32,529 bases of DNA. Origin: a virus (Duplodnaviria > Caudoviricetes). The notes below the pieces were generated by a model, which made no database searches, was not told the origin of the DNA, and saw nothing but the letters and a program-made list of their open reading frames with translations. The stretch lies in IMG/VR virus record IMGVR_UViG_3300037419_000760, positions 1 to 32,529 of that record; one strand, written 5' to 3'. How positions within the stretch are numbered: position 1 is the first letter of the stretch; each line of letters begins with the position of its first letter. Both the position numbers and the translations under genes were made by a program. Below are positions 1-32,411 of the stretch, piece after piece.

Positions 1-1920
1 TCTATCTGACACTTTCTTGTCTAATACATATGTATCAACTGGACCAGTAAGCTTTGCGGATTTTATAATATCACCAGCCGCAAGAGCAATTTCAGGACGC
101 TTGTTCTTTTGTGCGTAATTATTAAGAACATTATTAGCTTTTTCAGTAGCAGGTTTTGATTGACTTAGCCCAATCTTACCAACCTCTCCCTTCTTCGGCC
201 CTTTATCAGCATTTAAAACGATTTGCCCAATTTTTTCATTCTTAGGTAGAACAATACCACCACTAGCATACTTATTCCATGTACTTAACGTATCGTGTCC
301 AATTGCTTGTGCGGCACTTTTCTTAATAACAAACTCACCAGGAGTCAACATAGCAGGAACAGTATCACCACTTCCACTTCCTGGGACACGACCACCAGTA
401 GCAAACTTAATCGGTTTGTTAACTCCACTAGAAATACCAGCGGCAAAACCAGCAACACCACGACCCAACTTAACTGCGGCAAAGACAGTAAGCAGAGGAA
501 GAAGGGGGGTGAGCGCTTTGGTGATTTTAACGAGGGCGCTTGCTAGACTGAGGGCGGAACCCACGAACGCCTGCACCATCGAATCCCCAGCGATGACGCG
601 GAATAGGTCGGCAAACTCTTCCTTTAGCTTTGTCACACGAACGATGAGCGAACCTTGGGCAATGGCGGCATCCTTACTGAGCGAGGCTTGGCCAGATAGT
701 CCGGTGTTAAGGGCGTCCTGAGCTAAACTGAATTCTTTAAGAAGGGGGATCACTTTGGAAACCTGACGGATACCGCCGATGGTTTCGACGATTTGGGCGA
801 ACCTTTTATCTGAAGTAGGGATACCTTCAAGGGCGGCGCTTAATCTCTTGACTGCTTCATATGGGCCGACGAACTCGCCTTGCATATTATCAAGGGTAAC
901 ACCAATTTGTTTAAGTGAGTTAATGGTACCGGGTTGTTGTAATCGGGCAAAAATTGTTCGGAAGCCGGTCGCGATACTTTCGGCCGATTCACGAGTGGTC
1001 GCACGAACAGATGTAAATAGGGCGAGGAATTCATTTAAACTACCACCCGCCGCCTTGAATGCACCACCGCTCCGTCTAATCGCCTCGATTAAGTCACCGG
1101 ACTCAACAGCATATTTTGCAGACACAGTGTTAATGGAACCTAGGGCGCCCTCTAAATCCTTGCTCTGTACCTTAAACTGAGCCATGACCGCAATAGCACC
1201 TTCAGTAGTCCTGGCGATACTATCGAATGTTGGAGCTAGTTCAGTTTTAGCTAACGCCTCTAAAGCCTTCTTAGTTTCGGTCGCACTTAAACCAGCCTGC
1301 CTTAATGTTACAGCGGTCTCAATCAATCCTTGCGAAGACACACCAAGGGTTGTTGATAGTCTGGTAACCTCATCTGAAATCCCTTTGATAACCCCCTTAC
1401 TATCTCCACCCACCTGGGCTAATTTGATTAACTCGTGCTGGAACTTAACTGCATCCCTAAATCCGTTTTGGATAGAGAAAACAAATCCAGCAATCACACT
1501 AGCCGCCACTGAAAATCCAATAAATTTTTTCGCAGACACGCCCACCAACTCGCCAAACTGCGAGACAGACTTGGAAGCCGACTGAGTAGATTGTCCAACC
1601 TTGTTAATACTAGATGTTATCTTATTTATACTTGTGGCGACACTAGAGGCGCTTCCCTGCATGGAGTGAAACGTACCGGCCAACTGTTGCAGAACCACAT
1701 CGGCTCTCTTACCGCTTTTTTCAATAGCTAATAGATTTTTATTTAGCAGGAAAAGCCTAGAGTTTAACTGGGTTACATTACCAATAGTGCTAGTATTAAG
1801 ATTTAGTTTAATATTAGCATTAACATTAGATAAGCCCGCCTTGATCTGTGCAATGATCGGCTTTAAATTCGGTGGCCCTTTAATCTGTAGCTGAGCCTGA
1901 ATAGCAAATGAGTGTGCCAT
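1..1920 (-). CDS. Tail tape measure protein, TP901 family (5' part; runs off the window)
   Basis: Not in the ORF track because it is open at the window edge. Starts ATG at 1920 (MAHSFAIQAQLQIKGPPNL...) after GAGG. Contains the TP901-type core (LIEAIRRSGGAFKAAGGSLNEFLALFTSVRATTRESAESIATGFRTIFARL) and the tail-protein motif FATGGRVPGSGSGDTVPAMLTPGEFVI. Lies downstream of the tail genes. Confidence 0.9.
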   Translation of the reverse strand, partial: MAHSFAIQAQLQIKGPPNLKPIIAQIKAGLSNVNANIKLNLNTSTIGNVTQLNSRLFLLNKNLLAIEKSGKRADVVLQQLAGTFHSMQGSASSVATSINKITSSINKVGQSTQSASKSVSQFGELVGVSAKKFIGFSVAASVIAGFVFSIQNGFRDAVKFQHELIKLAQVGGDSKGVIKGISDEVTRLSTTLGVSSQGLIETAVTLRQAGLSATETKKALEALAKTELAPTFDSIARTTEGAIAVMAQFKVQSKDLEGALGSINTVSAKYAVESGDLIEAIRRSGGAFKAAGGSLNEFLALFTSVRATTRESAESIATGFRTIFARLQQPGTINSLKQIGVTLDNMQGEFVGPYEAVKRLSAALEGIPTSDKRFAQIVETIGGIRQVSKVIPLLKEFSLAQDALNTGLSGQASLSKDAAIAQGSLIVRVTKLKEEFADLFRVIAGDSMVQAFVGSALSLASALVKITKALTPLLPLLTVFAAVKLGRGVAGFAAGISSGVNKPIKFATGGRVPGSGSGDTVPAMLTPGEFVIKKSAAQAIGHDTLSTWNKYASGGIVLPKNEKIGQIVLNADKGPKKGEVGKIGLSQSKPATEKANNVLNNYAQKNKRPEIALAAGDIIKSAKLTGPVDTYVLDKKVSDR

Positions 1921-1943
1921 ATGATTCCCTCAAATCCTCAAAT

Positions 1944-1994
1944 AAAAAAAACGTAGTGGTAGCGCACCTATTTAGAGATAGCACTACCCTACGT
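1944..1994 (-). terminator. Rho-independent terminator upstream of the tape measure gene
   Basis: Imperfect inverted repeat 1951-1965/1981-1994, followed on the minus strand by a T8 run (A-run 1944-1951). Confidence 0.65.
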
Positions 1995-2012
1995 TTGAAA
2001 GTAACTTTCCGC

Positions 2013-2849
2013 TTACTGTGGTTGAGTTCGTCTCTCGGGAACATTAAGGAATGGCTTTTTGTCAACCAACTTGCCATCCTTGTCGATTCTCTGACCCTTG
2101 ATATTGACTCGATTATTATTCTCGTCAACCCACTGACCTAGGTCGTTAATTAATAGACCAGTATCTTTATCATAAGGTTTTCCATCATCATTAAGATACT
2201 GTAGTTTATCGTTTACAAACCCATATTCAATTAAGAAAGAGTTTTCCGGGTAATTCTTTTCATAGTTGTAGTCAACCCCATAAACAAATTCCATATAAGC
2301 CTTGGTAGCATCACCCGTAACCTTCTCTTCGCTGCGAGCCTGGAATTTTTCAAAGGTGTCGAAAAACTTTTTCTTTACATTATAACTATACACCGTACAT
2401 GCAAAAATTAGATAGTTTAACCTAGCCAACTCAGCCTGCCCCTCAACAGTTTGATTATCAAGGGAGTTTTTACGCATGGCGAGGTCCATATACTTCGCCC
2501 TCTTCACCTGTAATCCTTCTGCTAACTTCACAGCTTTATCGAATTCAAGACCACCCTCTTCTAGTTTTGCTCCCTCATGTTGTAGCTCATTATATAGCTC
2601 ATTAAGTTCTTTCTCATCTTTATCTGTCCAAATACCCTTTTCGACTAGAAGAAGAGGAACCTGTGCCCTTAATGGGTTTCCAACTCTTAGTGCCTCAGCC
2701 CAAGCTTTAGAGTAATGCTTACCCGCCTCTGTCGCATCTGCCGCACTTGGTCTAACAATAGCAAGGCTAACCTTTGAAGTTTTGCCATCCTCTTCCTTAA
2801 TTTCACTCTCAAAATCATATTGTGTCTTAGTTTCATCTGCCATATTCAT
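2013..2849 (-). CDS. Putative tail assembly chaperone
   Basis: 278-aa charged, helical ORF directly before the tape measure; AGGAG upstream. Function inferred from position only. Confidence 0.5.
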   Translation of the reverse strand: MNMADETKTQYDFESEIKEEDGKTSKVSLAIVRPSAADATEAGKHYSKAWAEALRVGNPLRAQVPLLLVEKGIWTDKDEKELNELYNELQHEGAKLEEGGLEFDKAVKLAEGLQVKRAKYMDLAMRKNSLDNQTVEGQAELARLNYLIFACTVYSYNVKKKFFDTFEKFQARSEEKVTGDATKAYMEFVYGVDYNYEKNYPENSFLIEYGFVNDKLQYLNDDGKPYDKDTGLLINDLGQWVDENNNRVNIKGQRIDKDGKLVDKKPFLNVPERRTQPQ

Positions 2850-2862
2850 GCTCCTTAGTTAC

Positions 2863-3240
2863 TTAATTAGTAAAACCTTTGTCCATAGGTAAATCTTTAT
2901 GAAACCTATTCCATTCAATCGTATACTCTTCAATCTCGTTCTTAGCCGCCCTCAACTCGTTATTTCCCTTGTCCAACATCTCTTTCCTGCAAGCCTCCCA
3001 GATTTTTCGTTCAGCCTTTTGGTCCTGGGTTAAATCTTTAATATCCTTACCCTGCCCCCAAAGGTCACCAAAGTATTTTTCTACTGTATTGATATCTCCA
3101 ATAAATGTGGTTGTGATTTTCTTTGAAATGTTTTTAGAAAGCCTGTTCGCAGAAGACTTTCTATAGACAGCCTCGTTTTTTTTCTCAGCCTCTTTCCTTA
3201 ATTTTGTAGCCTTAGCAAACATTTGTGAAATTTTTTTCAT
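2863..3240 (-). CDS. Hypothetical protein (tail module)
   Basis: 125-aa ORF with AGGAGG RBS, co-oriented with its neighbours. Confidence 0.7.
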   Translation of the reverse strand: MKKISQMFAKATKLRKEAEKKNEAVYRKSSANRLSKNISKKITTTFIGDINTVEKYFGDLWGQGKDIKDLTQDQKAERKIWEACRKEMLDKGNNELRAAKNEIEEYTIEWNRFHKDLPMDKGFTN

Positions 3241-3264
3241 TTATCCTCCTACCCTTCCTTTAAA

Positions 3265-4323
3265 CTACTTTAAACTATTCGACAGATTTATATTGGCTTG
3301 CATAGCTATTCGCATGCGAGTTTCCTTCAAGTCTAATTCGTTAACAGTGCCCTCCTCCTTAATCTGCTTCATACGTTGAGCAAGCGCTACCTTACCAGCG
3401 AAATCATTAGCCTCGTAAATCTTTTTGGCATCCTCAACCGTATCTACTTTAATAAATACCTCTTCCGAATTTTTAATCTTTTCGTTCCTGATACTCGACA
3501 TAATATCTCCTTTATTATGCTCTATTTCTCTCTGCTTATGCTGAATCAACATCCACCCATCTAACATGTCATCATCTTTAACAACATCATCACCAGGGTA
3601 ATCAGGCGACTCAGCGATATTATCATACATTTGAGCATATAGGATAAGATTTTTTTGATAATCGGTTAAATCGATAGATGGCTTCCCAAAAACACCCTTA
3701 CCGGAATTCTTAGCCGACCCCCAATAGGATTTCCACGGTTCTCCCCTGGCTATCTCCCTTATCTTTTTTTCATCTAATCTACACTTATTCACTTCATTTA
3801 TTATAGCATCTAGTAAATAATCCGGCTTGCCCCATCCAGAAAAATCTTTCCAGTAGGGCTTACTTTTATAATAAATTGACGCCCCCGTTAAATAACGAAG
3901 TTTAGCAGAGGAAGCAATACCATGGCAGGTCAAGTAGTCGAGTTCGTGCTTTTTCTGATATAGTGTATCAATTGCCGCCCTCGTATCATTCAGCCCCCGC
4001 CGCACCATTTCCCTCTCAATACTTTGTAGCTTCAATTCATATAGTTTAATCTTTAAATCCGTTACATTCTTAACCATCTTACTTAACTTTTCTTCCTCTG
4101 CTGACGACCATCCACCGCTTATTAATAGGTAGGTCATAAGCTCATCCTCGTCCCATATTTTTTCCTTCTTGCATTGGGTGAATATATCCTTATACACCTT
4201 TTGTGCGAAACACTTGTGTTCAATGGAAGGATTTTTATAAGAATATGTTTTCCCGTCTACGTCACAAAAAATAACTCCTGAAATAATCTGATAAGTATAA
4301 TAATCAAGTTCCCACTGTTCCAT
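3265..4323 (-). CDS. Hypothetical protein (tail module, possibly chaperone-like)
   Basis: 352-aa ORF with purine-rich RBS, between the tail tube and tape measure genes. Confidence 0.7.
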   Translation of the reverse strand: MEQWELDYYTYQIISGVIFCDVDGKTYSYKNPSIEHKCFAQKVYKDIFTQCKKEKIWDEDELMTYLLISGGWSSAEEEKLSKMVKNVTDLKIKLYELKLQSIEREMVRRGLNDTRAAIDTLYQKKHELDYLTCHGIASSAKLRYLTGASIYYKSKPYWKDFSGWGKPDYLLDAIINEVNKCRLDEKKIREIARGEPWKSYWGSAKNSGKGVFGKPSIDLTDYQKNLILYAQMYDNIAESPDYPGDDVVKDDDMLDGWMLIQHKQREIEHNKGDIMSSIRNEKIKNSEEVFIKVDTVEDAKKIYEANDFAGKVALAQRMKQIKEEGTVNELDLKETRMRIAMQANINLSNSLK

Positions 4324-4474
4324 GCTCCGCTACTCCCCTTTTTAACTGGAGATTCTCTGACTTTAGGTGTTCTATCAGAGCATCCTTTTGGGCTAACTTT
4401 TGTTCCATTTCCTCCATACTTATCCTGTACTGTAAATATAATTCTCCTATGAGTTTTAGATATCTCTCGTCCAT
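4304..4474 (-). CDS. Small coiled-coil protein (56 aa), not in the ORF track
   Basis: Hand translation MDERYLKLIGELYLQYRISMEEMEQKLAQKDALIEHLKSENLQLKRGVAEHGTVGT*; AGGAG upstream; fills the gap after the terminator and overlaps the next start. Confidence 0.6.
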   Translation of the reverse strand: MDERYLKLIGELYLQYRISMEEMEQKLAQKDALIEHLKSENLQLKRGVAEHGTVGT

Positions 4475-4503
4475 TATCTGCGGCGCTCCTGTTCCTGATT
4501 AAT

Positions 4504-4541
4504 AAAAAAAAGAGTGAATACAAATCAATGTATCCACTCTT
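4504..4541 (-). terminator. Rho-independent terminator after the major tail protein gene
   Basis: 13-bp stem 4510-4522/4529-4541 followed by a T-run on the minus strand. Confidence 0.8.
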
Positions 4542-4565
4542 AGTATAGTCTTTATCAACCAAGCT

Positions 4566-5699
4566 TTAGTATGGCCAAGGGCAGGTTGCAGCGCTTGGGT
4601 CTCGTGGATGAGTAATATCTAAATGAGATTGTGTCTGGTAGGTGTACTTTACAGTAACGTTGCCACCACCAGTGTCACCACCAGTATAAGTTACACTCTG
4701 AAGTTTGTTCTTAGTACCAAGGTTAAGGAATAGCCCCTCGCGACAACGAATTCTAATAGAACGATTTATTAGATTATTACCAGCATTCGGGCCAGTCGTA
4801 TAAATACCTTCGGCGTAAGCGTTAACGTTATCCCACTTGGTTGCGGTTACGTTAATCTCCGTGGTCACATCAACCGGGAAGTTAACGAATCTATGGTACG
4901 GACCTCTACGACCCTGCTCATTAATAGCATCACGACCAAGAGTAGCACTTACTGTAATGTCGCCAAGGTGAGAACTAAAGTTACCACCACTATCACGGTT
5001 GTTGGTGCCCGAGCTACTAATACCATCAACATCAGGAGGAAGAATAGTTAGGAATGCAGCAACTTGCCCGTTTTCATCTAGAGTATTTGAGGTTTCTGCG
5101 GACGGAGAACCGTTACCAATTGGGTAGAAAATCATATCCTGTCGCCTTTGAACACCACCAGAACCAGCGGTTAAAGCGAACGGAGAATCGTTACCACTGA
5201 AGAATCCACTAAAGTTCATAGTGGCCCCACCAGCAATGTCACGCCAAGCCTTATCGTTAGCAACGGCAGTAAACGACTCTGTATAGTTACCGTCTAGTGA
5301 AAAATTAAAATTACTAGATGACCAATACGCACCAGAAACATTCACTTCAGCGATGGAAACACCAGACGCCGACTGTTGAGAATCACTAAATACGTTAAGA
5401 GCAATAGTTGTTCTAATATTTGATCGACCGACTAGACTTGCGTTCGGGGCACCATTAGTCGCCAAACATACAAGGGGAGGGTATCCATCGATAACTTTTT
5501 CGGCTGTAAGTTCAATATCGGGAACAACTTCAATGTTTTCGTAAACTTCGATCTGACCTAGTTCGCCAACCGCATCTAGGTTAAATGTCGTGGTGATACC
5601 CACGTTCTGTACACCATGCGCCTCAATATAAGTGGTGCTTCCATATTTGGAAAAACCGACTGATTGAATAGCATAAAAAATACGTCTATTTGCTACCAT
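4566..5699 (-). CDS. Putative major tail (tube) protein
   Basis: 377 aa, beta-rich, G/S/T/N-rich. Has its own upstream intergenic region and downstream terminator, as expected for an abundant virion protein. Follows the neck genes. Confidence 0.65.
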   Translation of the reverse strand: MVANRRIFYAIQSVGFSKYGSTTYIEAHGVQNVGITTTFNLDAVGELGQIEVYENIEVVPDIELTAEKVIDGYPPLVCLATNGAPNASLVGRSNIRTTIALNVFSDSQQSASGVSIAEVNVSGAYWSSSNFNFSLDGNYTESFTAVANDKAWRDIAGGATMNFSGFFSGNDSPFALTAGSGGVQRRQDMIFYPIGNGSPSAETSNTLDENGQVAAFLTILPPDVDGISSSGTNNRDSGGNFSSHLGDITVSATLGRDAINEQGRRGPYHRFVNFPVDVTTEINVTATKWDNVNAYAEGIYTTGPNAGNNLINRSIRIRCREGLFLNLGTKNKLQSVTYTGGDTGGGNVTVKYTYQTQSHLDITHPRDPSAATCPWPY

Positions 5700-5761
5700 A
5701 ATTTCATCCTCGCTTTTATCATTTTTTCATCATTTTAAAATGAGAACACTCGATAATGTTA

Positions 5762-5768
5762 TATACAC
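5762..5768 (-). promoter_or_regulatory. Candidate late-promoter element GTGTATA
   Basis: The same heptamer recurs in or beside intergenic DNA upstream of four late genes (5762, 13900, 19617, 24174), always on the coding strand. Confidence 0.5.
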
Positions 5769-5785
5769 CAAACAGGTCAAACGAG

Positions 5786-6739
5786 TTAGATATTCGGTAT
5801 TTGTACTTCCATCTGCGCCCTTACAATACCCTGGAAAAGACCGGGTGATAAATTAACCGTCTCCTGACTGGTTACCTCATAGAAAAAAGCGCTCAAGCCA
5901 GGATAAAGTCTTATCAAATCCGGGTAGCACACAGCCGATGGAGTAATCGACCCATAGTAATCGAGGGGGAAGGCGTTAGCAGAGGAAATAGCATTCTTGT
6001 CGTAAAAAAAGATACGCTTTTCTTTTTGATACGTGAGAATATCTACAAGGTTACCACGCTCATATGTTGTTTCGGCAAATATATGGAAAAGTAAATCTTG
6101 ATAAACCCATTGGCCGCCACCCTGTTGGTATGGTTTAAGGGTGCGACGTGGCACCGACTCTACGATAATAGCGGGCAACTGAATGCGGTTTTGCGCCATA
6201 GTTGATCGGACGCCAGACCCATAGTTGTCAAAATTTGTATCGATAATAAATGAATTAAACTGTAACTCTTTAAACCAAGGGGAGTCAGCTTGGTAGCAGT
6301 TAATGTATTTATAACTAAAATCCAACTCGACTCGACTGTTAATAGGAATAGAACTTGCGAAGACAACTCGTCCCAATGGATAGTTAATTTTATATGAATA
6401 ATTACCAGATGTAGATAATGGTAAAAAGGTATTATTGAGATAAACACCGGAAATCGGGATGGGTTGATAAGCGTAATCAACACCACTCTCCCATACCCAA
6501 TTAGCTCTGAACCCCTCCCAAACCTGTCCTTTATTGTAGTTGGGGTCTTCTGCCAATCTAAGTTTGTATTGTGACCCACCATACGCACCCGAGGATGTTG
6601 GCCTATTAACATTAAAGAATGCGCCAATACCTAATAGTGACCATGTGAAAAAATCAACAACATTACTAACGAGTTGATCGTTTAATAATGAGTCTCCAAT
6701 ATTGCTGACACCTTTTAATCTTGTCCAGTCTGAACTCAT
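5786..6739 (-). CDS. Putative tail terminator/completion protein
   Basis: 317 aa directly upstream of the tail tube gene; C-terminal QLPAIIVE...QDLLFHIFAET...DIL pattern resembles tail terminator proteins. Confidence 0.5.
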   Translation of the reverse strand: MSSDWTRLKGVSNIGDSLLNDQLVSNVVDFFTWSLLGIGAFFNVNRPTSSGAYGGSQYKLRLAEDPNYNKGQVWEGFRANWVWESGVDYAYQPIPISGVYLNNTFLPLSTSGNYSYKINYPLGRVVFASSIPINSRVELDFSYKYINCYQADSPWFKELQFNSFIIDTNFDNYGSGVRSTMAQNRIQLPAIIVESVPRRTLKPYQQGGGQWVYQDLLFHIFAETTYERGNLVDILTYQKEKRIFFYDKNAISSANAFPLDYYGSITPSAVCYPDLIRLYPGLSAFFYEVTSQETVNLSPGLFQGIVRAQMEVQIPNI

Positions 6740-6748
6740 CTTATATCC

Positions 6749-7399
6749 TTATTTTAATCTATTTGTAATTTCTTCTTCGACAATTTTCCCTAACACTCTC
6801 TCCGTGGAAGCGTCATCTACAAAAGCACGAGTGATAAAATTATTGTCTTCGGTACCACTAAAATGAGGAGGCACCCTCCAACCAGCCCCATTTTTAATCA
6901 TAAAAGCATTGTGAGACCTAGATTTAGAAGAGTATTTATATTCGACACCATAATCAGCGATAATAATTGAATCACCCTTAAACAACAACCATTCTAACCA
7001 AGGGATCTCGTTAATACCCGACATATACTTAGCAGAGGAAAGTGTGGTTAATTCGATAAACTTATCTTTGACCAATCCGATAGTTACCGCTCCAGATAGG
7101 GCGCTCCCGACGATTTTTAGCCCCTGGAAATCAACGGTGACCCCATTAGCTAATGTTTCTAAGATTTGACTAAGGGCGCTCGATGGGTCTTTTAACCCTA
7201 ATTCCTGCCCAAGTTTCCCGTTAAGTATATCATCGTATTCGGGAGTGTTCATTACTAAGTGTTTTACGAATTCACCCACCCTAATTTTAATATCAGGGAT
7301 AGCCGAAAAGATGGCGTCATCAAGAGCTTTAGAAAACTCAAATAGCAATATCTTTTCTATTTGATCAGAGGGGTCTGTAATACTTAGGGAAAGTTGCAT
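6749..7399 (-). CDS. Putative neck/tail-completion protein
   Basis: 216-aa ORF in the adaptor-stopper-completion-terminator position, ending NFITRAF...; function from synteny. Confidence 0.45.
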   Translation of the reverse strand: MQLSLSITDPSDQIEKILLFEFSKALDDAIFSAIPDIKIRVGEFVKHLVMNTPEYDDILNGKLGQELGLKDPSSALSQILETLANGVTVDFQGLKIVGSALSGAVTIGLVKDKFIELTTLSSAKYMSGINEIPWLEWLLFKGDSIIIADYGVEYKYSSKSRSHNAFMIKNGAGWRVPPHFSGTEDNNFITRAFVDDASTERVLGKIVEEEITNRLK

Positions 7400-7400
7400 G

Positions 7401-25132: not shown

Positions 25133-25218
25133 TCCAATGGCCCCCCTCCCAATCAACACGCGGGCACGGATGCTCGCGAAACATCATAACAATGGGAGCA
25201 AACGTCAGCGGTTTTCAT

Positions 25219-25247: not shown

Positions 25248-25299
25248 TATTACAGAACACAACGGTTCAACCGACACATGCTTTTGGGGGGATGAAAGG

Positions 25300-25473
25300 A
25301 TGACTTTCGATGAAATCCAGTGTGAAGAGGTCTATGATCATGAGCTACTGGAAGACGTGGTCGAAATGCGCCCTTCCCATGATTGCTACGCTGGTCCCGA
25401 CCTTCGGAGCAACGATGACCGCTCTTTGGTGGGTTTGGACGATTGGCAGTCAGATTTTCCTGTCACTTCATAA
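25300..25473 (+). CDS. Small very acidic protein (57 aa), not in the ORF track
   Basis: Hand translation MTFDEIQCEEVYDHELLEDVVEMRPSHDCYAGPDLRSNDDRSLVGLDDWQSDFPVTS*; G6 SD-like run upstream. Confidence 0.55.
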   Translation: MTFDEIQCEEVYDHELLEDVVEMRPSHDCYAGPDLRSNDDRSLVGLDDWQSDFPVTS

Positions 25474-25527
25474 TGTGATGGTTCAATCGTCGAAGAGTTT
25501 GTAATTCTCTGATCATTTTGTTAGTCG

Positions 25528-25600
25528 GCACCGTTAGCTCAATAGGTAGAGCAACAGGCTTTTAACCTGTCGGTTGGGGGTTCGATTCCCTCACGGTGCA
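25528..25600 (+). tRNA. tRNA-Lys (anticodon UUU), CCA not encoded
   Basis: Full cloverleaf: acceptor GCACCGT/ACGGTGC, D arm GCTC/GAGC, anticodon arm ACAGG-CTTTTAA-CCTGT, T arm GGGGG-TTCGATT-CCCTC. Confidence 0.95.
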
Positions 25601-25602
25601 CT

Positions 25603-25672
25603 GGTCGGATAGGTGACGCTGGGTAGGGGACGCTTCAAAAGAGCGTTACCCGAGAGTGGGCAAAATCCGACC
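25603..25672 (+). ncRNA. Candidate structured RNA of unknown family
   Basis: Perfect 8-bp closing stem GGTCGGAT/ATCCGACC enclosing a further 9-bp stem; non-coding; begins 2 nt after the tRNA. Confidence 0.35.
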
Positions 25673-25727
25673 TTCACTCACTTACTCTTTCTCTGCTAAC
25701 TGGTAACTAGTAATTGGAGATTCGACT

Positions 25728-25979
25728 ATGCGTCATGACATGCTCAAGAACGCGGTTCGTGGTGACGTGGTGACCTTTCCCGCCATGACCAACCTGCGAA
25801 CGTTCCGGGTTGTCAAGGTTCGGGACCGTATGAAAGAGGGTCTACAGGCAGATACCCTTCGGCGTCGCCCTTTGAACATTCGGTCACAAGTGCACGTTAC
25901 CCTTCGGGACACCCGCACCGGCCGACTGCAAACGCGATACTTCGCGGAAAACGTCCCCGCGTTGATTCTGGAAATCTGA
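25728..25979 (+). CDS. Hypothetical basic protein
   Basis: 83 aa, Arg-rich, GGAG RBS. Confidence 0.7.
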   Translation: MRHDMLKNAVRGDVVTFPAMTNLRTFRVVKVRDRMKEGLQADTLRRRPLNIRSQVHVTLRDTRTGRLQTRYFAENVPALILEI

Positions 25980-25996
25980 GGTTCGCCGGATAGGGG

Positions 25997-26025
25997 TTGA
26001 CGGTTATCCAGAAAAACCGTACTTA
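25997..26025 (+). promoter_or_regulatory. Possible sigma-70 promoter (weak -10)
   Basis: TTGACG-N17-TACTTA, intergenic. Confidence 0.35.
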
Positions 26026-26069
26026 CCTCATCTCGAATTGGTTAGCAGGGGAAAGCAAGGGGGGTCGCC

Positions 26070-26234
26070 ATGAAAGAGGATTTGCTGGAAAACGTTCTTA
26101 AGGCATTGCTCGCTAGTGGAGTGGCCCAATCCGAATTGGTTCGGGCAACGCAGATGGTTTTGAGCGATTCCGTTTCCAACCAACTGCACGCGGTCGTCTT
26201 GAGCCTAATGGACGAAGAGAACAAAGAGGTTTGA
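26070..26234 (+). CDS. Small hypothetical protein (54 aa), not in the ORF track
   Basis: MKEDLLENVLKALLASGVAQSELVRATQMVLSDSVSNQLHAVVLSLMDEENKEV*; AAGGGGGG 5 nt upstream. Confidence 0.65.
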   Translation: MKEDLLENVLKALLASGVAQSELVRATQMVLSDSVSNQLHAVVLSLMDEENKEV

Positions 26235-26294
26235 CCCCCTAACCCTTCCCTGCTAACTACGGGGTGGATTAGGGCCAGTTATTTTGGGACAAGT

Positions 26295-26322
26295 TTGACA
26301 TTCCGATGCGACGTGGTATGAT
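26295..26322 (+). promoter_or_regulatory. Sigma-70 promoter with extended -10
   Basis: TTGACA-N16-TATGAT with TGn. Confidence 0.75.
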
Positions 26323-26357
26323 GGGATAAGAACGCGAAAGAAACCTTTTCTGGAGTC

Positions 26358-27089
26358 ATGAACGTGGCGAAGATCATTCCCCTACTCAAGTTCTCGCGTG
26401 GCAATGCTAAGTTGGGAAAGAGCATTTATACGTTCTCGCTTCCGAGCGGTCATTCCTGCCCCAACGCTCTTGAGTGCCTTAGCAAATCCGACCGGGCGAA
26501 CGGCAAAATCAAAGACGGTCCACACACCCGGTTTCGGTGCTTCTCTGCTTCTCAAGAGGCTCTTTATGGGCCGGTTCGGCGGCAACGGTGGCACAATTTT
26601 GAGGCGTTGAAGGGACTGACTTCGGAGCAGATGCAAAGTCTGATTTTCCTGTCGATTCCTTCAAAAGCAACGATGGTGCGGATTCACGTTGGGGGGGATT
26701 TCTTCAGCCAGGCTTATTTTGACGCTTGGGTTGAAGTCGCACGGATGCTACCAAACGTGACATTCTACGCCTATACCAAATCCCTTCCTTATTGGGTTTC
26801 GCGGATTCACAAGATCCCCTCTAACCTCATCTTGACCGCCTCTAGGGGTGGTCGCCGCGATGAGATGATTAAGACTTACGGGCTGAGAGAGGCTGTTGTC
26901 GTCTTCTCAGTCGAGGAAGCGGAAAAGCTGGGCTTGCCTATTGACCACGATGATTCCCATGCGTACACTCAAGGTGGGTCATTCGCTCTTTTGATTCACG
27001 GTACCCAACCTTCAGGAAGTGACGCGGGGAAAGCCAAGTCTAAGCTCAAAGGTGTCGGTTCTTACGGCCGAGGCAAAAATGGGAAATGA
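26358..27089 (+). CDS. GP88-family (mycobacteriophage gene product 88-like) Cys-containing, radical-SAM-like protein
   Basis: Motifs GNAKL...FSLPSGHSCP..LEC...CF and RIHVGGDFFSQAY..AW...A...P...FYAYTKS are characteristic of this family. Confidence 0.7.
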   Translation: MNVAKIIPLLKFSRGNAKLGKSIYTFSLPSGHSCPNALECLSKSDRANGKIKDGPHTRFRCFSASQEALYGPVRRQRWHNFEALKGLTSEQMQSLIFLSIPSKATMVRIHVGGDFFSQAYFDAWVEVARMLPNVTFYAYTKSLPYWVSRIHKIPSNLILTASRGGRRDEMIKTYGLREAVVVFSVEEAEKLGLPIDHDDSHAYTQGGSFALLIHGTQPSGSDAGKAKSKLKGVGSYGRGKNGK

Positions 27090-27204
27090 ATTAACGGTAT
27101 GGGAAATCCTTTGCCGTATAATCATTTGCCTATCGTTCGGCTATGGGCTTATGACTTACCATCCTTCAGACACGCTCACTTCCCGAAGGAAAAAGCTCAA
27201 ATGA
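27079..27204 (+). CDS. Small putative membrane protein (41 aa)
   Basis: MGNELTVWEILCRIIICLSFGYGLMTY...RRKKLK; overlaps both neighbours (ATGA coupling at 27201). Confidence 0.45.
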   Translation: MGNELTVWEILCRIIICLSFGYGLMTYHPSDTLTSRRKKLK

Positions 27205-27638
27205 CCTTGAAGCGTGATTGGTACGCTGGACTTCGCGACGAAATGGAAACCGAAATTCGCAAGGGGCTGCACAAGGCACGGAGGGCGGGCCGGACGGGTT
27301 GGGGTGACAGTCGGAAGAAAAGAGTCAAGCATGACTACGTTGTCAAACCTCTATTCCCCTCTTTCACAACGGATGATGAGCACGGAGGGCGGAGCCTGAC
27401 CTACCACAATGAGCAAGTGGCCGATAAGGTCGCACGCCATGAGGCCGGACAATCCCTTTGGAGCGATGGCGAAGCCGATACGGAGACATTTGAGGGAACG
27501 GAATTGCGGGATAGCGAGAAGACTTTTATCGGTTCCATCCTTGACATGAGAGACGCCCATCTTCAGGAAAGCTCTAAGAAGAAATGGGTTCGGGAATTGA
27601 GTGAGACTGAGTCGTTCCCCGGTCGTATGCTTGCCTAA
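27201..27638 (+). CDS. Hypothetical protein
   Basis: ATG 27201 (MTLKRDWY...) after AAGGA, coupled to the previous stop; basic N-terminal half and acidic C-terminal half. Confidence 0.6.
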   Translation: MTLKRDWYAGLRDEMETEIRKGLHKARRAGRTGWGDSRKKRVKHDYVVKPLFPSFTTDDEHGGRSLTYHNEQVADKVARHEAGQSLWSDGEADTETFEGTELRDSEKTFIGSILDMRDAHLQESSKKKWVRELSETESFPGRMLA

Positions 27639-27666
27639 CAATCTGACGGTTTTTAGAAAAATTATT

Positions 27667-27695
27667 TTGACCGAATCCTATCCAAACTGTATGAT
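27667..27695 (+). promoter_or_regulatory. Sigma-70 promoter
   Basis: TTGACC-N17-TATGAT with an AT-rich UP-like tract upstream. Confidence 0.7.
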
Positions 27696-27753
27696 TTACA
27701 GTGCGGGTAGGATTTCTCACTTTCGATCAAAGCACGTTAGCAGGGGAAAAGCA

Positions 27754-28131
27754 ATGAGGGTCACCCAATTTCTTGAGAAGCACAATCCGACCTTTTACTT
27801 CAACAGGGTCGATAGTCGGCCCCGCGTCAACCCGAGTCAACTTGAGATGAAATTTCGTCATTACCTCGTCACCCTGATTACGGAACGGGGAAGGATGGTT
27901 TCGTTCTACTCAGTCGAAGAGGCCGTTAGAGAGGGGCCGTTCCTTATCAATGTGCTCGAATGTCTCATTTGTGAGGCAGTGTGCGGTGACATGACCTATC
28001 GAGAAGCCTGCGAGGAAATCGAGGGTGTTTTAGACTTCAGGGAATGGCAGTCATGTCGAGACACGCGGGACGGTCTGATTGATCTATTCGGGAGGGAAGG
28101 ATTCGGGGAATTGTTGGCGGTCACATTCTGA
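27754..28131 (+). CDS. Hypothetical protein
   Basis: ATG 27754 (MRVTQFLEK...) downstream of the promoter and a GGGG SD. Confidence 0.7.
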   Translation: MRVTQFLEKHNPTFYFNRVDSRPRVNPSQLEMKFRHYLVTLITERGRMVSFYSVEEAVREGPFLINVLECLICEAVCGDMTYREACEEIEGVLDFREWQSCRDTRDGLIDLFGREGFGELLAVTF

Positions 28132-28151
28132 GGTTCCTGCGCAAATAGGTT

Positions 28152-28179
28152 TTGACTTTCCCCATCGGTGCTCTATAAT
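28152..28179 (+). promoter_or_regulatory. Sigma-70 promoter
   Basis: TTGACT-N16-TATAAT. Confidence 0.75.
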
Positions 28180-28227
28180 TGAGTATCGGTGGGGAAAATA
28201 GATTTTCGGGAAATGGGAGTCGGCCAC

Positions 28228-29502
28228 ATGTTCGTTTACGAGATTCCTGCGGAAAACCTGGACAAACTGACGGAACGGTTTGAGAAGATGGTTAATCGGT
28301 CAAAGAAGTGCCGAACCATCGCACCCACGTTCACCGTCATCCATGAGGCTGAAGAGGTCTCAACCGCCAAGGATTCCGACGTGGCGACCGTCAACCGCTT
28401 CCTCTACATCACGATCGATGGCATTCTCCCGAAGGTCAAGGATTGGCAGTTCATCGCCACTATCGACCACACGAACGATACGGGCAACATCATCCGTGGC
28501 GTTCCTGGCATGGGTGACATTCCCGTCTCATTCAGAAAGGCCGCTCCCTCTTGTCAGCATTGCGGCCACACCCGCCAGCGTCATGAGACGTTCGTTCTGC
28601 GCAAGGGGACCGAATACAAGCAGGTGGGTCGAAACTGCCTGGCCGATTTCTTTGATGGCGAGTTGGCGGATTACGTGGTGCCTCTCACCGAACTATGGGA
28701 AAGCTTGGGTGAGATGATTTCGGGGATGGGTGACAGCTACGGAAACCAACCCTCATTCTTCTCATCGGCCGACGTTCTCACCCTTACTCAAGAGGTCATT
28801 ATCGAGTGCGGTTGGCTTAGTGCGACGAAGCGACGTGAGATTCTTGAGACCGATGATAGGGCGCCGGAAACCACGGCTTATTTGGTTGGCTCATTGTTGG
28901 CACCCCCGGTGACTCGTTCCACCTACATTGTCGAGTTGTGGAGCAAGATTAACGCCAATCGGGCAAACCGCTCCGAAGAGGAAAACGCCTCTCTCGACAC
29001 CCTTTCCGAAACCGCTCTTGAGTGGGCGCGTTCACTCGACCCGGAAGCCGAAACGACTAACGATTATCTGTACAACCTCCACACCATTAGCAAAGCTGAA
29101 TCTGTCAGCTACAAAGGCTTGGGTCTTCTGTGCTCCCTCATTCCAGCCTATCGCCGGGTTACTGAGGTCCAAAAGGAAAGGGAATCCAAGCCGGTTTCAT
29201 CTCACGTTGGAATCATCGGTGGTCGGCAAGTTTTTGAGAATGTGACTGTCGAATGGGTTGGACAGGCGACCTACAGCCAATGGGGTGCGACCACACCAGT
29301 CAAGTTCGTCGATTCGACCGGAAACGTTCTGATGCTTTGGTGCTCGGGTAGTGCGAACGAATACGAGGTTGGAAAAATCCTCTCTATCGTCGGCACCGTC
29401 AAGAGCCACGATATCTATCGAAACGTTAACCAAACGGTTATCAATCGTGTCAAGCTGTGGGATGGAAAGCCTGTCAAGCAAGCCAAGCCTAAGAAGAAGT
29501 GA
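28228..29502 (+). CDS. Phage protein with Zn-finger and C-terminal OB-fold-like domain
   Basis: CQHC..TRQR...KQVGRNC Zn-binding pattern; C-terminal HVG...SQWG...FVDSTGN...IVGTVKSH..Y....QTVINRVK is OB-fold-like; GGGAG RBS before ATG 28228. Confidence 0.7.
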   Translation: MFVYEIPAENLDKLTERFEKMVNRSKKCRTIAPTFTVIHEAEEVSTAKDSDVATVNRFLYITIDGILPKVKDWQFIATIDHTNDTGNIIRGVPGMGDIPVSFRKAAPSCQHCGHTRQRHETFVLRKGTEYKQVGRNCLADFFDGELADYVVPLTELWESLGEMISGMGDSYGNQPSFFSSADVLTLTQEVIIECGWLSATKRREILETDDRAPETTAYLVGSLLAPPVTRSTYIVELWSKINANRANRSEEENASLDTLSETALEWARSLDPEAETTNDYLYNLHTISKAESVSYKGLGLLCSLIPAYRRVTEVQKERESKPVSSHVGIIGGRQVFENVTVEWVGQATYSQWGATTPVKFVDSTGNVLMLWCSGSANEYEVGKILSIVGTVKSHDIYRNVNQTVINRVKLWDGKPVKQAKPKKK

Positions 29503-29513
29503 GGGGGGGGCTT

Positions 29514-29588
29514 GCTACCTAACCCTTGTAACGCTAGTGTGTTATGAGGGTTAGGTTAGCGACATATGTGCGTCCTAGCATATGTCGC
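29514..29588. repeat. Two adjacent inverted repeats (hairpins)
   Basis: CCTAACCCT 29518-26 / AGGGTTAGG 29547-55, extendable with G-U pairs; perfect GCGACATATG 29559-68 / CATATGTCGC 29579-88. Confidence 0.75.
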
Positions 29589-29711
29589 CCGAGAACCCGA
29601 TAGCCAAGAGGGAACACCTAAACAAACAAGAGTTGGATGGCCACGCCTGTGCATATGTAGATATGTTATTGTGTGGACTGTGTGGGCTGTGCAGTTGGGG
29701 GAGATTTCTAC

Positions 29712-29739
29712 TTGACATTTGTGCGCTAGGGTCTATAAT
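29712..29739 (+). promoter_or_regulatory. Consensus sigma-70 promoter
   Basis: TTGACA-N16-TATAAT. Confidence 0.8.
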
Positions 29740-29790
29740 TGGACAACGGGATTGAAATCAGTTAGCAGGGGAAAATCAGGGGGGTGGCCA

Positions 29791-29991
29791 GTGCATTTTG
29801 AATACCTCAGCCATAACTCTTATTGGGTCAAATGGCAGAAAGGTGACCGATTCCCTACTTGGGAGGTTGGCGGTTGGCGAGTCGTCGGCACGGATGGAAA
29901 GGTTCTTATCGAGGGGGATTTCAACGGTTGTTTCTGGTTCATGTATAAGAGTGGTGCGGCGTTTTCCCACCAGACTCCAAAAAATGTTTGA
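29791..29991 (+). CDS. Hypothetical aromatic-rich protein (66 aa)
   Basis: GTG start after AGGGGGG; same leader design as the 26070 gene. Confidence 0.6.
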   Translation: MHFEYLSHNSYWVKWQKGDRFPTWEVGGWRVVGTDGKVLIEGDFNGCFWFMYKSGAAFSHQTPKNV

Positions 29992-30214
29992 GGATTACGA
30001 GGAGATGAACAATCGCGAGAAAAGGCTTATTCGGGAAAATACCATTCGATCAATGATGTTGGCGGCATTTCGGATTGACTGCCACGAATCCGCCAATGTC
30101 ACCTACGAGGCAATTCGGCGCCACTGTCCCGAATTCTCGCCTCGTCAACGGGCCATGGTTCGCTCCATTGCGGTGAACAAAGGAATTGTGGACGATTCAC
30201 CCGAGTGGAATTAA
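29984..30214 (+). CDS. Hypothetical protein (76 aa)
   Basis: ATG 29984 (MFEDYEEM...) overlapping the previous stop. Confidence 0.6.
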   Translation: MFEDYEEMNNREKRLIRENTIRSMMLAAFRIDCHESANVTYEAIRRHCPEFSPRQRAMVRSIAVNKGIVDDSPEWN

Positions 30215-30237
30215 CATGCTTTTTCCCTGCTAACCTC

Positions 30238-30265
30238 TTGATTTGGTCGGGGGGTTAGCTACAAT
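30238..30265 (+). promoter_or_regulatory. Sigma-70 promoter
   Basis: TTGATT-N16-TACAAT, intergenic. Confidence 0.6.
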
Positions 30266-30304
30266 TGTTCAGGGTAGAGAGAAATTCCTTTCGGAGAATG
30301 ATCA

Positions 30305-30829
30305 ATGCACACAACCGATTTTCGCGAGATTGGCAACGATGAGCGAATGAGGGTCACCTACGGGTTTGAATGTTTCACTGGCCAACTTCCCTATTTCAGC
30401 ATCACAGGGGAAATCTTCGGCAAGCGTGGGATGGAAACCTGTGGCTGCATTCATAACGAAATCCGCAAACACTTCCCTGAGCTTGCCAACCTCATTCCCT
30501 TCCATCTGTGCGATAGCAACGCAACCCCAATGCACTATGTCGCCAACGCGGTGTATTGGGCTGAGCTTGCTATGGGTGTTGGTCAGTGGCACGGGAAAAC
30601 CGATATCCCGAACGGATATGCTTCCTTTGAAGACGTTTTGGCGTCTCACATCCTTGCTGACGTTTTGGGTGACAGGGATGAAATGAAGGATGCAATCCGT
30701 CTGTCCAAACCCGATTTCAAAGCTTGGCTCGAATCCAGGATGGATAAGCTGGGTGCCGCAATGAAAACCGCTCTGGAATCCCACGGTATCACCATTCCCA
30801 CCACTCCCACCACTTCGGAAATCTTGTGA
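30305..30829 (+). CDS. Phage hypothetical protein with a Cys/His cluster
   Basis: 174 aa; GGAG RBS; YFSITGEI...CGCIHNEIRKHFPEL..LIPFHL....PMHY motif. Confidence 0.75.
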   Translation: MHTTDFREIGNDERMRVTYGFECFTGQLPYFSITGEIFGKRGMETCGCIHNEIRKHFPELANLIPFHLCDSNATPMHYVANAVYWAELAMGVGQWHGKTDIPNGYASFEDVLASHILADVLGDRDEMKDAIRLSKPDFKAWLESRMDKLGAAMKTALESHGITIPTTPTTSEIL

Positions 30830-31158
30830 TGATTCGCTATCGTGACAATGCCGGTTGCACACAACATTCAATCGCCCGATTCACCAAACATATCGGGCGG
30901 CTCGGCAAACTGAGCTACATCAAAGGGTATCGGTACAGAGGCCGTTATCAGGCTATTCATGAGGGGGTTTTGATCAGGGGGGAAAACGGTACCTTGCGGT
31001 TCAATGGTTTTTGCTGGGGGTATGGTGGTGAAGGTCCGCACGGTCTGAAAACCATTCTTTTGAAGCTGGGGGTTGACGAACCCATCGCACATCAAACCGC
31101 TTTCCATACCCCCCGTCGCTGGCCAGATATCGAGGAAGCTTGGAGAATTACCTTCTGA
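30826..31158 (+). CDS. Hypothetical protein, DUF6166-like WGYGGxGP motif
   Basis: 110 aa; FCWGYGGEGPHGLKTILLKLG. Confidence 0.6.
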   Translation: MMIRYRDNAGCTQHSIARFTKHIGRLGKLSYIKGYRYRGRYQAIHEGVLIRGENGTLRFNGFCWGYGGEGPHGLKTILLKLGVDEPIAHQTAFHTPRRWPDIEEAWRITF

Positions 31159-31162
31159 GGGA

Positions 31163-31191
31163 TTGCAATTGGGGTCGGAATACCTTAGAAT
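31163..31191 (+). promoter_or_regulatory. Sigma-70 promoter
   Basis: TTGCAA-N17-TAGAAT, intergenic. Confidence 0.6.
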
Positions 31192-31226
31192 GGTTTAGTG
31201 GGCAACTCTTTTAGGAGAATCCGAGA

Positions 31227-31436
31227 ATGACGCTCACACCAGCCTATGGGCGAGATTACAAGTCAGTCAAAGCTGTCAAGGAAGATTTTGACGCGGGAAA
31301 GGATTTCATGATTAACGATGTTTCCTCAAAGGATGATGGGAGGTACGCCAACAAAGAAGACCTTATCCAAGCAGGTGTCAAGGCTGTCAAAATCCGATAC
31401 GCCCGTCTCACAAAGGTCACAATTCTTAAATTGTAG
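31227..31436 (+). CDS. Small phage hypothetical protein
   Basis: 69 aa, MTLTPAYGRDYKS...; AGGAG RBS. Confidence 0.75.
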   Translation: MTLTPAYGRDYKSVKAVKEDFDAGKDFMINDVSSKDDGRYANKEDLIQAGVKAVKIRYARLTKVTILKL

Positions 31437-31446
31437 GGGGATAACC

Positions 31447-31695
31447 ATGATCAAAGTCATGGGCCATGGGAAGATGAGGAAAACGGTCAACATCCAAATC
31501 ACTCCCGATGGGAAAGCTACTCCAGATGGGACAACTCATTTGGAGTATGCAAGTGATGCTCACAGACTCGCTAGGGTTCTAGAGCGTAACCTACCATCGG
31601 GAACATTCGACCGTCTTCTCAAAGACCTGTTTTCAATCCACATGCGGGATTACCTTGACGACCAAACCATCCGACAGGGAAACGGACACTTCTAA
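31447..31695 (+). CDS. Hypothetical protein (82 aa)
   Basis: ATG 31447 after AGGGGG; TAATG coupling to the next gene. Confidence 0.6.
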   Translation: MIKVMGHGKMRKTVNIQITPDGKATPDGTTHLEYASDAHRLARVLERNLPSGTFDRLLKDLFSIHMRDYLDDQTIRQGNGHF

Positions 31696-32369
31696 TGTTG
31701 GTCGATCAATTCCTCAGCATTCTGGTTACCGAACCAACACCATTGGTTCTCACCTTGACTACGGTAATCGTTAAGATGCCGGGTGATGGGGGATTGCTCA
31801 AGTTCAAACGGGGGGACAAAGGAATGCCAACCCCGTTTGTTGACGGTCTGTATCATCTCACACGCCAACACATCATCCTGGGTGGTAACTACGCTCGAAT
31901 GGTGAACGAGCAACGCCAACGTGAATTCAAAGCCTACCTGGACAGCATGCCAACGCCTCCGAAGTTTGTTCAATCCATTTTGACAGCCGATGAATTCATT
32001 GCCGAGGAACTCTGGAAAGGGAAGGGGCGCCGAGATGAGTTATTTCCTAGATTCGTTGTTTCTCACAGGGACACTGGTTTACGCTATCTGTGCTTCCGAC
32101 CAGTTTCATACGATCCATCGGGACAACCGACACCATTGACAGATGAGTTCTATGAGGCCGTTACGCTTCGACGTGTGGATTTTGACAAAGAGGTCAAGGA
32201 TTATTACAGAGCGGTCGGCAAACCTCCCAAGGGTCAAATGACCAAAAAAATGGTGCCATGGCGTACCGTTAAACTGGTTAATTGTGTGGCATGTCGATAT
32301 AAAGGGACACAATACTTTTTGGAGACGGAACTATTTGACCTTCCTGGTTTGCGTGATATAATTGGTTAG
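31695..32369 (+). CDS. Hypothetical protein
   Basis: 224-aa ORF coupled to the previous gene. Confidence 0.75.
   Translation: MLVDQFLSILVTEPTPLVLTLTTVIVKMPGDGGLLKFKRGDKGMPTPFVDGLYHLTRQHIILGGNYARMVNEQRQREFKAYLDSMPTPPKFVQSILTADEFIAEELWKGKGRRDELFPRFVVSHRDTGLRYLCFRPVSYDPSGQPTPLTDEFYEAVTLRRVDFDKEVKDYYRAVGKPPKGQMTKKMVPWRTVKLVNCVACRYKGTQYFLETELFDLPGLRDIIG
32335..32362 (+). promoter_or_regulatory. Sigma-70 promoter with extended -10, inside the 3' end of the upstream gene
   Basis: TTGACC-N16-TATAAT with TGn. Confidence 0.7.
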
Positions 32370-32411
32370 CAGGGGGAGAGAGCGGTTAGCAGAGGAGAAC
32401 AGGGGGGGGGC

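Follow-up and report, generated by a model that had tools for sequence, protein, structure and literature searches.

The virus record IMGVR_UViG_3300037419_000760, analysed over its whole length of 32,529 bases and here called the window, is a piece of a siphophage genome from a family whose members measure about 150-240 kb. Its relatives are tailed phages, with records of up to 244 kb, that carry their own DnaE, DnaB, DnaG and RecA. Dispersed over both strands of the window is a short asymmetric DNA word, which a first-pass annotation of the sequence had assigned to a multi-site binding system, with primase start sites as an alternative. Our analysis shows that the word is selected as DNA and that its copies are evenly spaced on each strand taken separately. 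We lean towards the view that these sites are extended start sites for the phage's own DnaG primase.

Results

The genes of the window lie in two arms:

1..24088, minus strand: late arm with the tape measure, tail, tail spike/fibre and head genes, the terminase, and the ERCC4 and HNH genes
24234..32529, plus strand: early arm with small genes, mostly each with its own sigma-70-like promoter, a tRNA-Lys and a GP88-family gene

The annotation had reported at least 15 exact copies of the word where about one is expected, every one followed by purines, and both observations hold. Exactly 15 copies of GTTAGCAG are found on the two strands of the window against 0.66 expected under an order-2 Markov model, together with five copies of GTAAGCAG and one of GTCAGCAG, and the five positions after GTNAGCAG are all purine in 21 of 21 copies. 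With up to one mismatch allowed, GTWAGCAGRGRA has 22 matches, compared with a mean of 1.08 and a maximum of 4 in 100 dinucleotide shuffles. The single-mismatch copies listed earlier at 1742, 3901, 4098-4105(-), 7028 and 24099-24106(-) are present, and the peptides read from copies within genes (KLAEG, SLAEE, TLAGK, ELAGK, SSANA, SSANT and FPANS) are correct.

A refined matrix recovers 30 sites in the window versus 1.3 in Markov simulations. The score distribution is bimodal and the excess lies solely above 15 bits. The consensus GT(T/A)AGCAG(A/G)G(G/A)AA(A/G) comprises 14 bases, is asymmetric and holds about 20 bits per site. Its C, A and G are the same in every one of the 30 window sites and of the 14 out-of-sample sites (records G020 and G023, see below); purines occupy the six positions after this invariant core, and information drops beyond them. 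A second box, rich in G and poor in C, follows 14-20 nucleotides (nt) past the GCAG anchor (in the window G 0.47, C 0.08 versus 0.22) and recurs, with G 0.44 (p=1.5e-7), in the combined sites of G020 and of the 941 bp by which G023 extends it. The window sites, with lengths of gene products in amino acids (aa) and open reading frames as ORFs, are:

488..501, plus strand: site GTAAGCAGAGGAAG, antisense, tape measure gene
1742..1755, plus strand: site TTTAGCAGGAAAAG, antisense, tape measure gene
2513..2526, minus strand: site GTTAGCAGAAGGAT, sense (KLAEG), 278-aa tail gene
3526..3539, minus strand: weaker site ATAAGCAGAGAGAA, sense, 352-aa gene
3901..3914, plus strand: site TTTAGCAGAGGAAG, antisense, 352-aa gene
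4092..4105, minus strand: site GTCAGCAGAGGAAG, sense, 352-aa gene
5975..5988, plus strand: site GTTAGCAGAGGAAA, antisense (SSANA)
7028..7041, plus strand: site CTTAGCAGAGGAAA, antisense
7673..7686, minus strand: site GTTAGCAGAAGAGG, sense (SLAEE)
8123..8136, minus strand: site GTTAGCAGGGAAAA, sense (TLAGK)
8271..8284, plus strand: site GTTAGCAGAGGAAG, antisense (SSANT)
13392..13405, plus strand: weaker site GCTCGCAGAGGAAA with G-rich tail, antisense
13672..13685, minus strand: site GTTAGCAGGGAAAA, sense (ELAGK)
16936..16949, plus strand: site CTTAGCAGGAGAGG, antisense, 506-aa head gene
17589..17602, plus strand: site GTAAGCAGAGGAAT, antisense, putative portal gene
17787..17800, minus strand: site GTAAGCAGAGGAAG, sense, putative portal gene
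19458..19471, plus strand: site GTAAGCAGAGAAAG, antisense, putative portal gene
21873..21886, plus strand: site GTTAGCAGGGAAAG, antisense (FPANS), ERCC4 nuclease gene
22168..22181, minus strand: site GTAAGCAGGAGGAA, end of the HNH gene; purine run at the expected ribosome-site position of the next gene
22531..22544, plus strand: weaker site GTATGCAGAGGGAA, antisense
24093..24106, minus strand: site GTTAACAGAGAAAG, non-coding, head of the late arm
24464..24477, plus strand: site GTTGGCAGGAGAAA, sense, 113-aa ORF
25687..25700, minus strand: site GTTAGCAGAGAAAG, non-coding, after tRNA-Lys
26041..26054, plus strand: site GTTAGCAGGGGAAA, non-coding, 5' of a 54-aa ORF
26244..26257, minus strand: site GTTAGCAGGGAAGG, non-coding, upstream of promoter-like 26295-26322
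27736..27749, plus strand: site GTTAGCAGGGGAAA, leader after promoter-like 27667-27695
29761..29774, plus strand: site GTTAGCAGGGGAAA, 21 nt past the -10 box of promoter-like 29712-29739
30221..30234, minus strand: site GTTAGCAGGGAAAA, 3 nt upstream of a -35 box at 30238
32365..32378, plus strand: site GTTAGCAGGGGGAG, 2 nt past TATAAT (32357-32362), first of a tandem pair
32385..32398, plus strand: site GTTAGCAGAGGAGA, second of the tandem pair, 20 nt on

Genes hold 21 of these 30 sites, and 86 of 99 sites over four records (the window, G001, G002 and G020). The 21 coding sites of the window compare with 1.6 in synonymous shuffles (maximum 7, n=200) and 0.7 in codon-order shuffles; out of sample, G020 has 12 versus 1.3 in synonymous shuffles. 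Over these four records the sites occur in every reading frame. As argued by the annotation, which had proposed a count against codon-preserving shuffles, the results support selection on the DNA and not on the protein. Sites lie in slightly less conserved protein stretches by mean quantile (0.38, p=0.04; 21 sites scored), while an identity measure gives p=0.37.

It is highly improbable that the word lacks a function and arose merely from bias in codons or peptides, from the avoidance of restriction sites or as an artefact of the library. The family does avoid restriction sites strongly, with CTGCAG at zero in the coding DNA of the window plus G020, of G001 and of G002, and LA(G/E) and SAN are common peptides. 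Against this stand the shuffle counts, the excess confined to high scores and the per-strand regularity described below, and this explanation is largely refuted. The word is not a library artefact, because independent assemblies and three IMG/VR records (L351-L353, 99.9% identical to the window) have the same letters: contigs from other public runs (X7, X8) differ from the window by 0-1 bases across the sites at 5975, 8271, 13685, 17589 and 17800.

Site avoidance left other traces in the family. The GCGC ratio is 0.0 in G001 and G002, and that of GATC is 0.36 in the window plus G020 and 0.10 in G001, which may help to assign hosts. A depletion of bare GCAG had suggested that near-sites are purged; it is largely explained by avoidance of CTGCAG, GCWGC and GCGC.

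The claim that the word is embedded in coding sequence holds for the window as a whole and needs correction in the early arm, where 8 of 10 sites are non-coding against a non-coding fraction of 0.18 (p=4e-5), often beside promoter-like sequences. Six sites also form purine runs that resemble ribosome sites, 14-26 nt ahead of a start. The 334-aa gene (putative major capsid) and the terminase gene have no sites; this capsid assignment and that of the putative portal gene follow from position. The 5.1 kb without a site that span the tail spike and fibre genes are no longer than chance allows (p=0.16).

Sense and antisense sites number 9:12 in the window, 13:16 in G001, 13:11 in G002 and 8:4 in G020, a total of 43:43. 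Counts by DNA strand are similarly balanced, 18:12 in the window and 18:14, 14:11, 29:23 and 18:15 in the other four of five records, and the sites are evenly spread.

With the map of strand and spacing that the annotation had also proposed, a second property of the sites becomes visible. Gaps between neighbouring sites on the same strand are too regular for chance: their CV2 is 0.42 in the window (p=0.015 versus uniform placement, 0.005 versus permutation of strand labels), 0.26 in G001 (p<0.0002), 0.32 in G002 (p=0.004) and 0.39 in G020, where it is not significant (p=0.17). Four records together give p<0.0002 against uniform placement as well as against strand-label permutation. Once both strands are pooled the gaps look random, with CV2 of 1.00, 0.76, 0.72 and 0.98 in the window, G001, G002 and G020, respectively. 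The evenness was replicated in G059 (CV2 0.52, p=0.011; pooled strands 1.03) and in G116 (0.33, p<0.0005; pooled 0.84). At short range the strands alternate, with 20 switches in the window versus 14.4 expected. Each strand has a grid of its own, independent of that on the other; this suggests a reader that deals with the strands singly and requires sites at intervals of a few kilobases.

The same numbers bear on the idea of a binding system for repression or genome organisation, which is not favoured, since evenness per strand but not pooled, together with the 43:43 orientation, is not what a duplex-binding repressor predicts. In its most concrete form, a monomeric phage repressor would bind the asymmetric duplex site, blocking initiation at early promoters and elongation elsewhere; we regard this as unlikely. 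The likeness to the stoperators of Cluster A mycobacteriophages (L5 gp71, TipsytheTRex repressor) is real: these comprise more than 20 asymmetric sites of 13-14 bases, some beside early promoters, with variants between relatives, and the window has 30 copies of a similarly built word. The early-arm sites near promoter-like sequences and the tandem pair after a -10 box would suit operators, and differences in the word between relatives could be immunity types. However, according to the available part of PMC9283540, L5-type sites occupy promoters and short intergenic spaces and are oriented with transcription, whereas here most sites lie in genes, in both orientations and evenly on each strand; a stoperator-like location is found solely in the early arm. 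For a signal of any kind, non-coding DNA also carries the least cost, and some of the sites double as ribosome-site-like runs. Among the 44 window proteins, which represent part of the genome, none matched a repressor family. The 21-base repeats of phage TLS are, in the available text of PMC11447400, intergenic and co-directional.

Programmed nicks or a sequence-specific base modification in virion DNA, serving ejection, packaging or protection, appear more unlikely still. The word is asymmetric and dispersed, and G001, G002 and G059 have glycosyltransferase and sugar-metabolism clusters beside their replication genes. Nicks of the T5 type lie on one strand, unlike these sites; several genes of the sugar clusters also occur in motif-negative records, and the word differs from a methyltransferase site in its graded purine tail.

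A viral scan for GTTAGCAGRGGAARNNNNGG gave 119 loci, of which 49 were searched for further copies. Only G020 (6 matches) and G023 (2, overlapping G020) proved rich in the word; G042 had 2. G020, a 17-kb record thus picked through one word match, does not overlap the window. It has 12 matches above 13 bits with the window-trained matrix, against a family background of 0.26 per 10 kb, and, with the G023 extension counted in, its G, T, G, C, A and G never vary over 14 sites. In 80 distant loci the window matrix showed no enrichment (72/16/3 versus 86/24/5).

G020 encodes RecA, DnaB, DnaG, a dNMP kinase, a PD-(D/E)XK nuclease, a split DnaE and an exonuclease. It probably belongs to the same genome as the window, an indirect linkage drawn from the same GC content and dialect of the word, shared runs and a 181,799-base contig common to both modules. 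Contigs of at least 99% identity to G020 number 29/18/2/8 in the four runs of the window, compared with 32/17/10/8 for the window itself, and the 181,799-base contig is listed for close relatives both of the G020 primase (P0129) and of the window's 334-aa protein (P0122).

The dnaG gene of G020 lies at 5093-6205 (L431). Profile matches of its product in the PDB are DnaG primases only, and its model resembles the ZBD and RPD of Aquifex DnaG (2au3, E=1.7e-14). The enzyme has 370 aa and apparently no helicase-binding domain. One site in the gene encodes the peptide VSRE(K/R), kept in 5 of 5 close primases, a weak hint that the site is retained. A second Cys/His cluster (CxxC...H...C) is inserted in the polymerase domain at residues ~226-238 (L431:5093-6205); it is invariant in 99 sequences, from motif-bearing and motif-free phages alike. 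Elsewhere in the replication module, a 199-aa ORF at L431:9181-9780 shares about 30% identity with a portion of the 334-aa putative capsid protein.

Twenty-nine relatives were scanned de novo, 18 at first (33-238 kb each; G001, G002 and G059 positive, 15 negative) and 11 more, all family members, found via a Whirly-like gene. Strand-gridded dialects of the word occur in four of the 29 (G001, G002, G059 and G116), and two more (G120 and G117) are enriched; for G120 the count is 36 versus 13 after re-refinement on shuffles, and G117 is a probable carrier. The dialects of the four and of G120 are:

G001: AAGGCRGGGRART, 32 sites in 65 kb, AAGG-C-RGGGRART
G002: TNAGCAGGRRAR, 25 sites in 33 kb, TNAG-C-AGGRRAR
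G059: AAAAGCCGARRR, 52 sites in 105 kb, AAAAGC-C-GARRR
G116: TNAGCARRRRAGG, 33 sites in 70 kb, gridded, TNAG-C-ARRRRAGG
G120: TWAACAGRRRATT, 41 sites in 41 kb, TWAA-C-AGRRRATT

Every dialect can be written as a flank, a C and a purine run, in the case of G059 after moving the register by one base. No gridded word was seen in G060, G056 or G062. A family screen of 327 loci of at least 4 kb, whose power is low (it missed G059 at 20 kb), found only L081 and L082 rich in three dialects; L119 and L120 were not confirmed on whole records. The window shares a branch of 18 rows with G001 and G002 in a quick tree built from the 352-aa protein, where the three do not make up a clade by themselves; the chaperone tree, of 83 rows, is a quick tree.

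G118 carries an unrelated dispersed word, GGGCGA with an AT-rich tail (53 sites in 70 kb, both strands; L687-L690), with 51 coding copies versus about 7 after re-refinement on shuffles and uneven spacing (CV2 1.32). Its primase is the most divergent. The AT-rich G004 (L338-L348) has dispersed palindromic words of the CGGCCGGCCG type, with 12 matches of CGGCCGGCC versus 0.1 expected and AGGACTTACG present six times. An intein lies in the C-terminal DnaE subunit of G001 (L334:14508-16952).

Further observations concern the window itself. At least half of a 9.9-kb stretch occurs in seven public runs, all from soil or rhizosphere, and the source of the record may be among three of them. The 334-aa protein has no match among 50,697 GenBank phages, a tail-tube query found no relatives, and the 10 matches in GTDB are all contigs in bins of unrelated taxa. 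When runs X7-X10 were compared with window positions 1-20000, the deep (17-21x) contig of a related phage matched short conserved stretches in all four; the longest records of these runs reach 112-191 kb, and a complete relative may exist there. In the early arm, tRNA-Lys(TTT) lies at 25528-25601 between small genes, and the best promoter-like sites (24864-32362) mostly have a 16-nt spacer (TTGAC-N16-TATAAT type), not 17. At 29519-29557, 3' of the 437-aa gene, lies an imperfect inverted repeat, CTAACCCTTGTAAC...GTTATGAGGGTTAG, in which parts of the word recur.

Discussion

Lagging-strand priming works on one strand and needs sites every few kilobases, and primase start sites are the explanation of the word that we prefer. 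The grammar and spacing of the word likely place it with primase start signals, as judged from sequence alone. The DnaG-type template trinucleotide is present, CTG at all 30 sites of the window and all 14 of G020/G023, and YYG in all dialects. The median same-strand gap of 1.9 kb in the window and 2.2-4.7 kb in relatives is of Okazaki scale. The annotation's alternative of primase initiation at CTG is the best-supported reading, and CTG is correct for this phage; the templates of relatives read C(T/C)G, TCG or (C/T)TG, so that only pyrimidine-pyrimidine-G is general.

According to the available parts of PMC2978363, DnaG recognises two pyrimidines followed by a purine, so that the first two bases of the primer are purines, and the third base is determined by residues of the zinc finger. 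Start sites are 5'-CTG-3' in E. coli, CTA in B. subtilis and S. aureus, CCC in Aquifex and 5'-(G/T)2GTC-3' plus a 3' flank for T7 gp4 (PMC2978363, PMC12839067). For T7, the accessible portion of PMC12839067 describes about 10 nt 3' of the site that add specificity, Okazaki fragments of 1-6 kb, and a template 5' side without effect. Our sites share with these systems the pyrimidine-pyrimidine-purine template core, a predicted purine-led primer, 3' determinants and a spacing of 1-6 kb, and the linked replication module of G020 encodes a DnaG enzyme with ZBD and RPD. Unlike the short sites, the word has about 14 informative bases, forms an even grid on both strands, exists in dialects, carries an extra G-rich box in the window and is created inside genes far above chance, not picked from an excess. 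The primase also differs in its second Cys/His cluster in the RPD and, at 370 aa, in the apparent absence of a helicase-binding domain.

In the proposed mechanism the template strand would read 5'-(C-rich box)-N4-YTTYCY-CTG-CWAAC-3'. The primase would recognise CTG plus the 3' flank CWAAC and initiate RNA synthesis with purines (pppAG or pppG); the pyrimidine tract would be copied into a purine-rich primer, which the phage DnaE would extend into an Okazaki fragment. At about 20 bits per site almost no sites would arise by chance, and selection would have to write one per 2-4 kb on each strand independently, both strands serving as lagging template. We infer the identity of the reader as primase, the place of the DnaG-DnaB-DnaE contig in the same genome, the register of the primer and the mode of replication.

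Several results weigh against start sites. Taken by itself, the window shows modest regularity (p=0.007-0.015 with three thresholds and 0.26 with the strictest), plain patterns show it in one of nine cases, and it is not significant alone in G120 (p=0.27) or G117 (p=0.065). Except in the G020 test, the matrices were trained on the sequence that they scored. DnaG sites as given in the available text of PMC2978363 and PMC12839067 have 3-5 nt, whereas the word holds 20 bits where 11 are needed in the window. The G-rich box sits on the template 5' side, a position without effect in T7 (PMC12839067, as far as accessible), and it was not seen in G001 or G002. In one register G117 has A or C, so that more than one primer start would fit. 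No word of this build was found in 23 of the 29 relatives, including the complete G003 and G004 with orthologous DnaG, DnaB and DnaE, and a pooled set of 46 loci had no sharp word. The early-arm sites near promoters, and the tandem pair above all, look operator-like.

The primases themselves add to these points. The expectation set beforehand was a word in those relatives whose primase has a divergent zinc-finger strand. All five primases of motif-bearing records differ from the family strand YRGNWKCRTH; yet a gridded word was found in none of six relatives chosen for a divergent strand, nor in four consensus controls, and the motif-bearing primases do not form one clade (3 changes). G091 and G094 had appeared positive at 80 kb; the full records show irregular CCGGGA words (CV2 1.16-1.18), most likely due to restriction avoidance, as CCCGGG is absent.

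A directional signal for another strand-tracking enzyme, be it a Chi-like attenuator of a phage or host helicase-nuclease, a helicase reload or restart site or a KOPS-like translocase guide, seems doubtful to us, although it has points in its favour. Per-strand evenness fits any reader that moves along one strand, and the family encodes RecA and a PD-(D/E)XK nuclease (G001, G020). The E. coli KOPS is GGGNAGGG, from which AGGCAGGG of G001 differs by one base. KOPS are polar by replichore, whereas the strands of the window alternate. The Chi-rich lambdoid phages LLS and MD8, like KOPS/SRS, have short G- or purine-rich directional words built by selection, about one per 1-2 kb. In the available part of PMC12315714, however, the Chi sites of such phages are polar (20:3, 32:0), end-clustered and found in phages mostly without a recombination module of their own, whereas ours are longer, strand-balanced and evenly spread in phages with RecA. 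The C-then-purine grammar is also left unexplained by such an enzyme.

A single-strand-binding co-factor would be a possible reader for such a signal, and the family offers a candidate. A Whirly-fold protein is encoded near the end of the replication arm (G001:33243-33782, L335:13343-13882; G059:46064-46612); its model has a pLDDT of 93.8 and its best PDB matches are plant WHY1-3 (E=2.6e-7). The gene was found at 18 IMG/VR loci and is absent from 17 complete family records. Among 48 records it occurs in two, both motif-positive, and in a follow-up planned in advance clear or probable dialects were seen in 3 of 11 new carriers versus 0 of 15 non-carriers (Fisher p=0.06; p=0.17 counting 2 of 11), the non-carriers having helped to define the association. 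Seven of the 11 carriers lack the word, one (G118) has the unrelated irregular word, and the motif-positive fragment G002 has no Whirly match. A comparison of generic patterns in the 11 versus 15 records gave p=0.80, 0.07 and 0.96, and the association holds only in part. The Whirly-like gene marks the lineage, its role as reader being that of a candidate. A second shared gene (G001 16892-17455) had no usable match in the Atlas search.

Conclusions

We found no published account of selected, evenly spaced start words on both strands of a phage in the text searched, with subscription journals and supplements outside the search. Even in T7 and E. coli, according to the accessible part of PMC12839067, it is not settled how a primase chooses among many possible sites. 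The family offers a natural series in this respect: five related phages have sharp, differing, evenly spaced words, and four of them (the window via G020, G001, G059 and G116) have a candidate primase.

Tentatively, the word may be a private replication code. DnaG, either unaided or together with a partner that binds single strands, for example the Whirly-like protein, would have evolved promoter-like specificity for a word of about 20 bits; the even grid on both strands would pre-program Okazaki starts, the replisome would copy only its own DNA and not that of the host, a satellite or a competing phage, and dialects would be replication compatibility groups. If primases read long words, Okazaki starts would be genetically programmable and an orthogonal replisome would be possible. 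If the reader is another protein, the word would represent an undescribed strand-specific signalling system that constrains the sequences of phage genes.

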